From Escherichia coli (GTDB lineage Bacteria > Pseudomonadota > Gammaproteobacteria > Enterobacterales > Enterobacteriaceae), in assembly GCF_001677475.2 (NCBI RefSeq), contig NZ_CP015229.1: a stretch of DNA of 64,000 bases; one strand, given 5' to 3'. Every line of letters starts with the position of its first letter. The first letter of the stretch is position 1. This document shows, in pieces, positions 29,367 to 32,684 of this stretch. A program made the position numbers and the translations under genes. The notes under the pieces were generated by a model that saw only the letters and a program-made list of their open reading frames with translations, had not been told where the DNA came from and made no database searches.

Positions 29367-32300
29367 ATGAGCAAACAATCACAGCATGTATTAATTGCCC
29401 TACCCCACCCGCTGCTTCACCTGGTCAGTTTAGGTTTAGTCTCGTTTATCTTTACCCTTTTCTCGCTTGAGCTTTCGCAGTTTGGCACCCAACTCGCCCC
29501 ACTGTGGTTCCCGACGTCCATCATGATGGTGGCGTTTTATCGCCATGCCGGGCGCATGTGGCCGGGGATTGCGCTGAGCTGCTCGCTGGGAAATATCGCC
29601 GCATCCATCCTGCTTTTTTCCACCAGCTCGCTGAACATGACCTGGACGACCATCAATATTGTTGAAGCCGTGGTCGGGGCAGTGCTACTGCGTAAATTGC
29701 TGCCGTGGTATAACCCATTGCAAAATCTGGCTGACTGGCTGCGTCTGGCACTCGGCAGCGCCATTGTTCCGCCTCTGTTGGGGGGTGTTCTGGTTGTCCT
29801 GCTGACGCCCGGAGACGATCCTCTCAGGGCATTTTTGATATGGGTACTGTCAGAATCCATCGGCGCACTGGCACTGGTGCCGCTGGGATTGTTATTTAAA
29901 CCACACTATCTGCTGCGCCATCGCAACCCACGGTTGCTTTTTGAGTCGCTGCTCACGTTGGCCATCACACTGACGTTAAGCTGGCTTTCGATGCTGTATC
30001 TGCCGTGGCCTTTTACTTTCATTATTGTGCTGTTGATGTGGAGCGCCGTGCGCCTGCCACGAATGGAAGCCTTTTTGATCTTCCTTACCACGGTGATGAT
30101 GGTGTCACTGATGATGGCCGCTGATCCCTCCCTGCTTGCTACGCCGCGTACATACCTGATGAGCCATATGCCGTGGCTACCGTTTTTGCTGATCCTACTG
30201 CCCGCCAACATCATGACCATGGTGATGTATGCCTTTCGTGCGGAGCGCAAACACATTTCCGAAAGCGAAACCCGTTTTCGTAATGCCATGGAATATTCCG
30301 CCATCGGCATGGCATTAGTGGGCACCGAGGGACAATGGCTGCAATCCAACAAAGCACTCTGCCAGTTTCTCGGTTACAGTCAGGAAGAACTGCGCGGACT
30401 CACCTTTCAGCAACTGACCTGGCCGGAGGATCTCAATAAAGATCTGCAACAGGTTGAAAAGCTGATCAGCGGTGAAATAAACACCTATTCAATGGAAAAA
30501 CGCTACTACAACCGCAATGGCGATGTTGTCTGGGCGTTGCTTGCCGTCTCACTGGTGCGCCACACGGATGGCACGCCGCTCTATTTTATCGCTCAGATTG
30601 AAGACATTAACGAGCTAAAACGCACCGAACAGGTGAATCAGCAACTGATGGAGCGCATCACGCTGGCTAACGAAGCGGGCGGGATTGGCATCTGGGAGTG
30701 GGAGCTTAAGCCGAATATTTTTAGCTGGGATAAGCGGATGTTCGAGCTGTATGAAATTCCTCCGCATATCAAACCGAACTGGCAGGTGTGGTACGAGTGC
30801 GTGCTGCCGGAAGATCGCCAGCACGCCGAAAAAGTGATTCGCGATTCATTGCAATCGCGCTCTCCCTTTAAACTGGAATTTCGCATTACCGTGAAAGACG
30901 GCATTCGCCATATCCGCGCCCTCGCTAACCGGGTACTGAATAAAGAAGGCGAAGTCGAACGCCTGCTCGGCATTAATATGGATATGACCGAAGTGAAACA
31001 GCTTAACGAGGCATTGTTTCAGGAAAAAGAGCGCCTGCACATAACGCTGGATTCCATCGGTGAAGCCGTGGTCTGTATTGATATGGCGATGAAAATTACC
31101 TTTATGAATCCGGTGGCGGAGAAGATGAGCGGCTGGACGCAGGAAGAAGCGTTAGGTGTTCCGCTCCTGACGGTGTTGCATATTACTTTTGGCGACAACG
31201 GACCATTAATGGAGAACATTTACAGTGCCGACACCTCACGTTCCGCGATTGAACAAGATGTGGTGTTGCACTGCCGAAGCGGCGGCAGCTACGACGTGCA
31301 TTACAGTATTACGCCGTTAAGTACTCTGGACGGCAGCAATATAGGCTCGGTTCTGGTGATTCAGGACGTCACCGAATCACGCAAAATGCTGCGCCAGCTG
31401 AGCTACAGCGCCTCCCATGATGCACTGACGCATCTCGCCAATCGCGCCAGTTTTGAGAAGCAACTACGCATCCTGCTGCAAACGGTAAACAGTACACATC
31501 AGCGACATGCACTGGTGTTTATCGATCTTGATCGCTTTAAAGCGGTGAATGACAGCGCCGGGCACGCCGCTGGCGACGCTTTACTGCGCGAACTGGCGTC
31601 ATTGATGCTGAGTATGCTGCGCTCCAGCGACGTGCTGGCGCGACTCGGTGGCGATGAATTTGGTCTGCTGCTGCCAGATTGTAATGTCGAAAGTGCGCGT
31701 TTTATCGCTACACGCATTATCAGCGCCGTGAATGACTATCACTTTATCTGGGAAGGACGTGTACATCGGGTAGGTGCCAGTGCCGGGATTACCTTGATTG
31801 ATGACAACAATCATCAGGCGGCTGAAGTGATGTCGCAGGCTGATATCGCCTGTTATGCCTCCAAAAATGGTGGACGGGGCCGGGTGACGGTTTACGAACC
31901 GCAGCAAGCTGCCGCACATAGCGAACGGGCGGCGATATCGCTTGATGAACAGTGGCGGATGATTAAAGAGAATCAGTTGATGATGATCGCCCACGGTGTC
32001 GCTTCGCCGCGGATCCCGCAAGCGCGTAATTTGTGGCTGATTTCACTTAAGCTCTGGAGTTGCGAAGGCGAGATTATTGATGAACAAACATTTCGTCGTA
32101 GCTTCAGCGATCCGGCACTTAGCCATGCTCTTGACCGACGGGTATTCCACGAATTTTTCCAGCAGGCCGCAAAAGCGGTTGCCAGTAAAGGCATAAGCAT
32201 CGCCCTCCCCCTTTCCGTTGCTGGTTTGAGTAGCGCCACACTGGTGAATGAACTGCTTGAGCAGCTGGAAAATAGCCCTCTACCACCACGGTTATTGCAT

Positions 32301-32684
32301 CTGATTATTCCGGCAGACGCGATTTTAGATCACGCAGAAAGCGTGCAAAAACTGCGACTGGCGGGATGTCGGATCGTATTCAGTCAGGTGGGCCGCGATC
32401 TGCAAATCTTCAACTCGCTGAAAGCGAATATGGCAGATTACCTGCTACTTGATGGTGAGTTATGCGCCAACGTGCAGGGAAATTTGATGGATGAGATGCT
32501 GATTACGATCATTCAGGGGCACGCTCAGCGGCTCGGGATGAAGACCATCGCCGGGCCAGTAGTTTTACCCCTGGTGATGGATACGCTTTCTGGCATCGGC
32601 GTCGATCTGATTTATGGCGATGTGATTGCCGATGCCCAACCGCTGGATTTGCTGGTGAATAGCAGTTATTTCGCGATTAACTAA
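29367..32684 (+). CDS. dgcE: Diguanylate cyclase DgcE (YegE): membrane MASE1, PAS, GGDEF and degenerate EAL domains
   Basis: 1105-aa ORF; N-terminal polytopic membrane region, PAS-like segments, intact GGDEF (RLGGDEFGLLL); C-terminal EAL-like region without an obvious EAL motif. Confidence 0.85.
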   Translation: MSKQSQHVLIALPHPLLHLVSLGLVSFIFTLFSLELSQFGTQLAPLWFPTSIMMVAFYRHAGRMWPGIALSCSLGNIAASILLFSTSSLNMTWTTINIVEAVVGAVLLRKLLPWYNPLQNLADWLRLALGSAIVPPLLGGVLVVLLTPGDDPLRAFLIWVLSESIGALALVPLGLLFKPHYLLRHRNPRLLFESLLTLAITLTLSWLSMLYLPWPFTFIIVLLMWSAVRLPRMEAFLIFLTTVMMVSLMMAADPSLLATPRTYLMSHMPWLPFLLILLPANIMTMVMYAFRAERKHISESETRFRNAMEYSAIGMALVGTEGQWLQSNKALCQFLGYSQEELRGLTFQQLTWPEDLNKDLQQVEKLISGEINTYSMEKRYYNRNGDVVWALLAVSLVRHTDGTPLYFIAQIEDINELKRTEQVNQQLMERITLANEAGGIGIWEWELKPNIFSWDKRMFELYEIPPHIKPNWQVWYECVLPEDRQHAEKVIRDSLQSRSPFKLEFRITVKDGIRHIRALANRVLNKEGEVERLLGINMDMTEVKQLNEALFQEKERLHITLDSIGEAVVCIDMAMKITFMNPVAEKMSGWTQEEALGVPLLTVLHITFGDNGPLMENIYSADTSRSAIEQDVVLHCRSGGSYDVHYSITPLSTLDGSNIGSVLVIQDVTESRKMLRQLSYSASHDALTHLANRASFEKQLRILLQTVNSTHQRHALVFIDLDRFKAVNDSAGHAAGDALLRELASLMLSMLRSSDVLARLGGDEFGLLLPDCNVESARFIATRIISAVNDYHFIWEGRVHRVGASAGITLIDDNNHQAAEVMSQADIACYASKNGGRGRVTVYEPQQAAAHSERAAISLDEQWRMIKENQLMMIAHGVASPRIPQARNLWLISLKLWSCEGEIIDEQTFRRSFSDPALSHALDRRVFHEFFQQAAKAVASKGISIALPLSVAGLSSATLVNELLEQLENSPLPPRLLHLIIPADAILDHAESVQKLRLAGCRIVFSQVGRDLQIFNSLKANMADYLLLDGELCANVQGNLMDEMLITIIQGHAQRLGMKTIAGPVVLPLVMDTLSGIGVDLIYGDVIADAQPLDLLVNSSYFAIN

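Follow-up and report, generated by a model that had tools for sequence, protein, structure and literature searches.

An intact GGDEF domain and a conserved but degenerate, probably regulatory EAL domain in the diguanylate cyclase DgcE of an Escherichia coli strain

Results and Discussion

DgcE in the Escherichia coli DNA that we analyzed (a stretch of 64,000 nucleotides from contig NZ_CP015229.1, assembly GCF_001677475.2, hereafter the window) is, very probably, a membrane-anchored cyclase that combines an intact GGDEF domain with an EAL domain that is non-catalytic, maintained and autoinhibitory, a reading based on sequence and on analogy with its K-12 counterpart. We saw nothing in our analyses that contradicts a degenerate, non-catalytic EAL domain.

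Identity and Genomic Setting of dgcE

The open reading frame at 29367..32684 (+ strand) is dgcE (yegE) of the ordinary, intact E. coli type, encoding 1105 amino acids and ending in a TAA stop codon. This assignment follows from the score of its product against the NCBIfam equivalog NF007298 (PRK09776; 2069.4 bits against a cut-off of 1135, residues 1-1105 on profile positions 1-1111), from its near-identity to the K-12 protein (YegE, b2067; NP_416571.1), with which it shares 1095 of 1105 residues, and from the conserved gene order udk-dgcE-alkA-yegD, which is that of K-12 and of E. coli strain 4621. Its score above the equivalog cut-off and its position beside udk and alkA place it in the DgcE/YegE orthologue group, and the same three lines of evidence bear out the initial annotation, which had matched this protein to the known E. 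coli DgcE. The window ORFs dcd, udk, dgcE, alkA, yegD, and yegI agree with those of K-12 and strain 4621, and the window is collinear with the latter across ~50 kb. Of 5,426 complete E. coli genomes, 5,400 carry the gene at no less than 80% coverage, and it is annotated as dgcE in 5,400 or more. The window itself is at most 97.7% identical to any of the 5,426 complete genomes compared.

The window and K-12 proteins have the same length and domain order and their genes the same udk and alkA flanks; the I-site, the GGDEF motif and the degenerate EAL residues discussed below are identical in the two. The differences are 10 amino acid substitutions, all conservative, of which eight lie within residues 843-1105; the genes have 96.7% nucleotide identity and differ in their stop codons (TGA in K-12). 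They differ also in the spacer to the convergent alkA, which is 37 bp in the window (32685..32721, containing a REP-like remnant recognized by alignment to K-12) vs. 108 bp in K-12; strain 4621 has an equally short spacer.

Domain Architecture and the GGDEF Domain

A Pfam scan gave the domain order MASE1, three PAS, GGDEF, and EAL. The MASE1 membrane domain (aa 19-294; 29421..30248, + strand; PF05231, 124 bits) lies within a stretch, residues 1-298, that has no amino acid differences from K-12, in which RdcA, a GTPase, docks on MASE1 (PMC6510439). It is followed by the three PAS domains (aa ~303-672; 30273..31382, + strand), which were matched in three stretches by TIGR00229 and by the Pfam models PAS, PAS_3, PAS_4, and PAS_9.

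The GGDEF domain (aa 682-838; 31410..31880, + strand) is complete, matching PF00990 over profile positions 1-160 of 161 with 155.7 bits (E 1e-45; gathering score 23.8), and its amino acid sequence is that of K-12 without a difference. The motif RLGGDEFGLLL, which the initial annotation had read as intact and of the active type, was found by motif search at aa 759-769 (31641..31673, + strand), with the A-site GGDEF at aa 761-765 (nt 31647-31661). It is not a chance match, since it lies inside the full-length Pfam domain. Upstream of it is an RxxD I-site, RSSD (aa 752-755; 31620..31631, + strand), separated from GGDEF by the five residues VLARL, and this arrangement has also been tabulated for dgcE elsewhere (PMC11327459).

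All of the Mg2+- and GTP-binding positions are present: D720, N728, D737, K833, and R837, which sit in FIDLDRFKAVNDSAGHAAGD and YASKNGGRGR; the I-site R752-D755 and the A-site G761-F765 are there too. We take the first five to be the equivalents of PleD D327, N335, D344, K442, and R446, and the latter two stretches correspond to the PleD RxxD site and GGEEF. With a complete domain, the A-site, the metal and GTP residues, and an RxxD I-site, the GGDEF domain shows every feature that one would look for in an active cyclase subject to product inhibition. Consistent with this expectation, deletion of dgcE lowers c-di-GMP in K-12 and a GGAAF mutant is inactive and loses output (PMC6510439, PMC5635695, PMC13031359).

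The C-Terminal Domain Retains the EAL Fold

The C-terminal ~250 residues constitute a genuine EAL-family domain (hereafter EALdeg, aa ~855-1101; 31929..32669, + strand) whose TIM-barrel-like fold, as judged by profile matching and structure prediction, is kept. Residues 898-1088 match PF00563 with 73.2 bits, well above the gathering score of 31.3, over profile positions 39-234 of 236; since the match starts at position 39, the segment with the EAL motif is left unaligned. The AlphaFold2 model of residues 841-1105 has a pLDDT of 88 and a pTM of 0.85 and is confident from about residue 855 to 1101. The best 50 Foldseek matches to this model are all EAL domains (TM 0.65-0.82), and against the solved EAL domains of FimX, RbdA, TBD1265, LapD, and RocR the TM scores are 0.72-0.82 (E 1e-13 to 1e-15). 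The suggestion from sequence alone that this region is EAL-like was therefore correct. The interval in which the two features had been reported, 32100-32684, was imprecise, although both features are real: it corresponds to aa 912-1105 only, takes in about 190 of the ~250 EALdeg residues, and excludes both the lost EAL motif (32037-32054) and the GGDEF motif (31641-31673), which is 427 nt upstream of 32100.

Loss of the EAL Active Site

No canonical EAL active site was found in DgcE by MAFFT alignment with K-12 PdeH, PdeL, and PdeR, by phmmer against PDB chains, or by hhalign, and the domain scan and inspection of catalytic residues proposed with the initial annotation thus yielded matches to PF00990 and PF00563 but not the active site of the latter. 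The position of the ExLxR motif reads L891-I892-S893-L894-K895-L896 (32037..32054, + strand; phmmer and MAFFT), and in the phmmer alignment EVLLR of FimX stands opposite LISLK of DgcE. The register of this strand differs by one residue between MAFFT and phmmer, and neither alignment offers an acidic residue for the E of the motif; the Pfam HMM (profile position 39) and hhalign (query residue 73) both begin downstream of it. Three E.L tripeptides occur elsewhere in EALdeg (ELL at 962-964, EQL at 965-967, and EML at 1043-1045), none of them at the motif position, in agreement with the earlier failure to find an EAL/ExL signature.

The remaining active-site residues have fared no better. Where PdeL has N200, E232 and E235 (the ELTE motif), D262 and D263 (DDFG), K283 (KID), E319 and E322 (EGVE), and Q339 (QG), EALdeg has P948, I980 and A983, S1006 and Q1007, L1027, G1063 and V1066, and Y1083, respectively; these calls were made from the MAFFT alignment with PdeH, PdeL, and PdeR, and the hhalign profile-profile alignment agrees independently. 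Substitutions thus affect every one of the ten or eleven positions for catalysis, metal binding and substrate, in line with the report that K-12 DgcE has lost essentially all c-di-GMP-binding, metal-binding and catalytic EAL residues (PMC6510439). The one potential exception is position 895, which is K in the window protein and R in most orthologues: since the strand can be placed in two registers one residue apart and 895 is R or K, one phosphate-contacting basic residue may survive there.

Since the residues for metal binding, water activation and c-di-GMP contact are all lost, EALdeg is predicted to be unable to hydrolyze c-di-GMP. A bifunctional DgcE, in which EALdeg would still work as a phosphodiesterase by means of a non-canonical active site, is extremely unlikely. 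The retained EAL fold and a Pfam EAL match above the gathering score speak for it, but the metal ligands (E, N, E, D), the catalytic K, the general-base E and the second D are all gone, and DgcE has neither the ExLxR motif nor the metal ligands, K, general-base E and Q that mark active EAL phosphodiesterases. In addition, by genetic evidence K-12 DgcE behaves as a cyclase, and the effect of deleting its EAL domain has been attributed to non-enzymatic inhibition (PMC6510439).

Comparison With RbdA and FimX

RbdA of Pseudomonas aeruginosa (PA0861; PDB 5XGB) shares the PAS-GGDEF-EAL module of DgcE and is the best match among solved structures for its GGDEF domain (150 bits) and among the best for its EAL domain. 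However, canonical residues are found in the EAL domain of RbdA (N, EVTE, DDF, KID, AEFVE, and QG), and RbdA is counted among the phosphodiesterases (PMC6510439). Relative to RbdA the polarity of DgcE thus appears reversed, its GGDEF domain being predicted active and its EAL domain dead.

The top match among solved structures to EALdeg, in both sequence and fold, is the EAL domain of FimX from Xanthomonas and Pseudomonas (PDB 4F3H, 3HV8, and 4FOK), and we therefore considered whether EALdeg might be a c-di-GMP receptor of the FimX/LapD type, binding the product of the neighboring GGDEF domain for feedback control. The FimX domain is likewise catalytically inactive and degenerate, with SQFG or EQFG in place of DDFG; where active enzymes have DDFG, P. 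aeruginosa FimX has SQFG and DgcE has SQVG. Residue 895, an R in most orthologues but a K in the window protein, is possibly the ExLxR arginine. Despite these similarities, we judge a receptor of this kind quite unlikely, as two landmarks of FimX are missing from DgcE: FimX has E-V-L-x-R against L-I-S-L-K in DgcE, and the K of KID, retained in FimX, is replaced by L1027 (LLD). The QP motif is H-G in DgcE, and the N, E, E, and Q of the binding-site lining have given way to P, I/A, G/V, and Y. Among the c-di-GMP-contacting residues that a receptor would retain, K895 is the only possible survivor, and in K-12 the c-di-GMP-binding residues are described as essentially all unconserved (PMC6510439). 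Furthermore, the FimX EAL domain is bound to c-di-GMP according to its PDB entry titles while DgcE is not known as a binder (no c-di-GMP-binding assay of EALdeg was found in PMC6510439 or PMC5635695), and the RxxD I-site of DgcE already offers a route for product feedback.

Conservation and Selection

The degeneration of the DgcE EAL domain is, from the alignments, an old one, as it is common to orthologues down to 45% identity, which have essentially the same non-catalytic residues. The exceptions are minor: three orthologues have A or T in place of P948, and V1066 is variable. The degenerate residues sit inside well-conserved blocks, among them GCRIVLSQVGRDL, ADYLLLD, and MDTLSGIGIDLIYGD.

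Compared with K-12, the dN/dS of EALdeg is 0.114, and that of the rest of the protein is about 0.01. Against Salmonella the EALdeg values are about 0.10-0.125, although these ratios are rough since dS is saturated (1.5-2.2), and the comparison spans only aa 748-1105 because the homolog search returned mostly contig-end or truncated fragments and few full-length orthologues. Although EALdeg makes up only 24% of DgcE, it contains eight of the 10 differences from K-12, all of them conservative (M857I, L874I, E885Q, S946A, D962E, E984D, L1005F, and E1085D). Non-synonymous change is ~10x faster in EALdeg than in the rest of DgcE (Fisher p = 0.0009), which indicates that the constraint on EALdeg is real but weaker.

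This faster change, the concentration of differences from K-12 in a quarter of the protein, and the disappearance of every catalytic residue are what one would expect if EALdeg were a functionless relic of a former phosphodiesterase that is decaying neutrally. We consider that interpretation very unlikely and effectively refuted, given a dN/dS of about 0.11, far below 1, and the conservation of the degenerate residues themselves, which orthologues down to 45% identity share along with long conserved blocks. There are no frameshifts or stops in dgcE, the fold is predicted with confidence by AlphaFold2, and deletion of the EAL domain alters the K-12 phenotype (PMC6510439). The conservation of the degenerate residues across enterobacterial orthologues, combined with purifying selection, instead points to EALdeg as a maintained module with a non-catalytic function. 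Together with the K-12 data on the ΔEAL allele (PMC6510439), these observations uphold the proposal in the initial annotation that the role of the domain is regulatory rather than catalytic.

A Regulatory Role for EALdeg

In K-12, EALdeg has been described as autoinhibitory and as counteracting DgcE oligomerization (Pfiffer et al., 2019; PMC6510439). The domain dimerizes, and its loss in the ΔEAL allele gives a hyperactive DgcE that assembles into higher oligomers; the effect of RdcA and RdcB on DgcE is independent of the EAL domain (PMC6510439). The anti-oligomerization mechanism is a published hypothesis drawn from K-12 experiments by two-hybrid assay and immunoblot (PMC6510439). By analogy with that 99%-identical protein, EALdeg in the window would autoinhibit DgcE by dimerizing in a manner that opposes productive oligomerization of the PAS3 and GGDEF regions, and docking on MASE1 by RdcA, a GTPase in its nucleotide-free state, together with RdcB would override its effect. 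The c-di-GMP made by DgcE would then act through the PdeR/DgcM/MlrA switch to turn on csgD and with it the curli and cellulose matrix. This scheme is transferred from K-12 to an allele that differs by the eight EALdeg substitutions.

Reuse of the EAL fold for protein-protein regulation in place of catalysis has precedents within E. coli, in RflP/YdiV, BluF/YcgF, and CsrD (PMC5635695), and the CsrD model NF008281 has a weak match to DgcE. Unlike DgcE, in which EALdeg would act in cis on its own cyclase, these proteins have other architectures and partners.

For K-12, the literature already describes both the degeneracy of the DgcE EAL domain and its regulatory role, so that the finding itself adds no new biology. 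Our analysis contributes some small additions, namely the age of the degeneration (down to 45% identity), the ~10x weaker purifying selection on EALdeg, and the possible basic residue at position 895. It is also conceivable, though unlikely, that the conserved degenerate pocket of EALdeg (P948, S1006, Q/H1007, G1063, Y/F1083, and R/K895) binds a ligand or partner beyond any steric block by dimerization; candidates could be some nucleotide besides c-di-GMP, or a hub protein of the DgcE interactome such as PdeR. If so, there would be a further, undescribed signal input for DgcE, the cyclase at the head of the E. coli switch from motility to the curli/cellulose biofilm matrix.

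dgcE gene and genomic context

DgcE (YegE) is encoded by a single long ORF of 1105 aa at 29367..32684 on the plus strand. The initial annotation placed an intact GGDEF motif and a degenerate EAL-like C-terminus at 32100-32684, which is the final 585 nt of this ORF (aa 912-1105); the observation itself holds, but the coordinates were imprecise, since the GGDEF motif (31641-31673) falls outside them. The ORF list of the window contains no second ORF of at least 100 aa overlapping 32100-32684 on either strand. Four antisense ORFs (29537..29860, 29906..30352, 30638..30973, and 31599..32021, minus strand, 107-148 aa) lie within dgcE, all upstream of this interval, and may be mere by-products of the long opposite-strand ORF.

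The protein matches the NCBIfam diguanylate cyclase equivalog NF007298/PRK09776 end to end with 2069 bits (equivalog cut-off, 1135 bits) and differs from K-12 DgcE (b2067) at 10 of its 1105 residues, with a nucleotide identity of 96.7%. The K-12 gene order dcd-udk-dgcE-alkA-yegD-yegI is present. Of 5,426 complete E. coli genomes, 5,400 contain the gene at ≥80% coverage, and it carries the annotation dgcE in the matches listed.

Tests on 20000-44000 and 7123-57181 showed collinearity of the window with E. coli (colanic acid cluster, yegH, asmA, dcd, udk, dgcE, alkA, yegD, yegI, mdtABCD-baeSR). The best identity among the 5,426 genomes was only 97.7% over 24 kb (99.0% for dgcE alone) and, therefore, the lineage of the window has no representative among them. 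Only 37 bp (32685-32721) separate dgcE from the convergent alkA, vs. 108 bp in K-12, with about 62 bp of REP/BIME-like sequence missing relative to K-12. The adjoining alkA (32722-33579, minus strand) encodes an AlkA of 285 aa ending in QPDGTDEL in place of one of 282 aa ending in QPDEA. The short arrangement is shared with E. coli strain 4621 and therefore represents a standing polymorphism. BLAST of 38600-39528 against strain 4621 also gave offset secondary matches (about 89% identity, period about 330 bp), which fall where ibsA and two paralogues, three Ibs type I toxin genes in tandem, are annotated upstream of mdtA in that strain.

Domain architecture and the GGDEF domain

DgcE comprises a MASE1 domain (aa 19-294; Pfam, 124 bits), three PAS domains (aa about 303-672), a GGDEF domain (aa 682-838; 155.7 bits, profile positions 1-160 of 161) and an EAL domain (aa 898-1088; 73.2 bits against a gathering score of 31.3, profile positions 39-234 of 236), all on the plus strand.

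A motif search located RLGGDEFGLLL at aa 759-769. The block FIDLDRFKAVNDSAGHAAGD (aa 718-737) carries D720, N728, and D737, and YASKNGGRGR carries K833 and R837; we take these five residues to be the equivalents of PleD D327, N335, D344, K442, and R446. Among solved structures, the GGDEF domain of RbdA/PA0861 is the closest (150 bits), and there are no amino acid differences from K-12 within the domain. The five residues VLARL lie between the canonical RxxD I-site (R752-S-S-D755) and G761-G-D-E-F765, an arrangement identical to that tabulated for dgcE (PMC11327459). Together with the abolition of DgcE output in a K-12 GGAAF mutant (PMC6510439), these features justify the initial description of an active-type GGDEF domain.

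The EAL domain retains its fold and has lost its signature residues

The C-terminal region is still an EAL domain as judged from its predicted structure. An AlphaFold2 model built from an 18-sequence alignment (mean pLDDT 88, pTM 0.85) has alternating strands and helices over query residues of about 15-261 (aa 855-1101), and all 50 matches listed by Foldseek against the PDB were EAL domains, including those of FimX, RbdA, TBD1265, LapD, RocR, MorA, and MucR (E about 1e-11 to 3e-15; TM 0.65-0.82).

When aa 841-1105 were aligned by MAFFT with the canonical K-12 EAL phosphodiesterases PdeH, PdeL, and PdeR, all signature positions were found to be substituted in DgcE: the metal ligand N by P948, the two glutamates of ELTE by I980 and A983, DD of DDFG by S1006-Q1007, K of KID by L1027, the two glutamates of EGVE by G1063 and V1066, and Q of QG by Y1083. 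Comparison of a profile of the DgcE C-terminal family with one of the canonical trio (hhalign, 95% probability) gave an identical register at all nine positions. Both the Pfam model and hhalign stop short of the ExLxR strand. There, phmmer placed EVLLR of FimX opposite L891-I892-S893-L894-K895, the MAFFT register being one residue off, and in both registers the residue aligned with E is non-acidic. The QP motif preceding this strand is H876-G877 in DgcE. With all ten or eleven catalytic, metal-binding and substrate positions replaced, the reported lack of an EAL/ExL catalytic signature is borne out, and non-canonical catalysis can be excluded because all metal ligands are lost.

The one alternative with any support is that the degenerate domain is a c-di-GMP receptor of the FimX/LapD type. 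FimX is its top PDB match, and P. aeruginosa FimX shares SQxG where active enzymes have DDFG; however, a receptor is unlikely, as DgcE has lost two residues that FimX keeps, the glutamate of EVLxR and the K of KID. In the FimX-based register aa 895 (32049-32051) corresponds to the phosphate-contacting R of ExLxR and may be the sole surviving EAL-signature residue, although this register is uncertain by one residue. Also in keeping with a receptor, this residue is R in most of the more distant DgcE orthologues aligned, and K in E. coli-like sequences including the window.

Selection on the degenerate EAL domain

A homologue search with aa 841-1105 recovered orthologous fragments down to 45% identity (Salmonella, about 62-64%). 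Across an alignment of 18 sequences the degenerate residues are mostly kept: 15 have P at position 948 (the remaining three, A or T), 17 have S at 1006, and all except one have Q or H at 1007. Position 1027 is occupied by L, M, or I and position 1083 by Y or F, while 1063 is G in every sequence covering it and 1066 is variable but never E. These residues sit in the well-conserved blocks GCRIVLSQVGRDL, ADYLLLD, AGP...MDTLSGIGIDLIYGD, and LPPRLLHL.

Eight of the ten amino acid differences from K-12, all conservative, are in aa 843-1105 (31893-32681). Non-synonymous to synonymous counts are 8:20 there and 3:76 elsewhere (Fisher p = 0.0009), with no replacements in MASE1 or GGDEF despite 14 and 24 silent differences, respectively. 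Nei-Gojobori dN/dS against K-12 is 0.114 for aa 843-1105 and 0.011 for aa 1-842; against a Salmonella fragment (L006) it is about 0.10-0.125, with dS saturated. Based on these ratios and counts and the conservation of the degenerate residues, the EAL domain is clearly under purifying selection, with a constraint about ten times weaker than in the rest of DgcE. These data exclude neutral decay, and a structural or regulatory module accounts for the pattern better than an enzyme or a relic would.

Many database entries are shortened C-terminal DgcE fragments (e.g., P0001, P0002, and P0031, relatives of 31887-32681), among them a 296-aa Shigella sonnei "putative sensor protein" cluster of 747 members, and a 427-aa protein fuses a transposase-type Pfam domain (PF13737) to the DgcE EAL region. 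Such entries agree with the literature, where disruption of dgcE is reported for S. flexneri and a pseudogene annotation for some pathogenic E. coli. The window itself has an intact gene.

Implications for DgcE regulation

DgcE thus combines an intact, I-site-bearing cyclase with an EAL domain that is folded, conserved and catalytically dead. The literature already covers this feature: essentially none of the residues for c-di-GMP binding, metal binding, or catalysis is conserved in the K-12 domain, which dimerises by itself, and its deletion raises DgcE pathway output and leads to the accumulation of higher oligomers (PMC6510439). Inhibition by the domain does not depend on RdcA/RdcB, an activating GTPase system with its docking site on MASE1, and the authors proposed that the domain sterically disturbs productive PAS3/GGDEF oligomerisation (PMC6510439). 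This work, along with the conservation of the domain and the selection on it, supports the regulatory rather than catalytic role initially suggested for the C-terminus. By analogy with the K-12 experiments, the domain in the window would be autoinhibitory, independently of RdcA/RdcB, in a protein whose output is an input to the PdeR/DgcM/MlrA switch that controls csgD (PMC5635695) and has recently been tied to membrane potential (PMC13031359).
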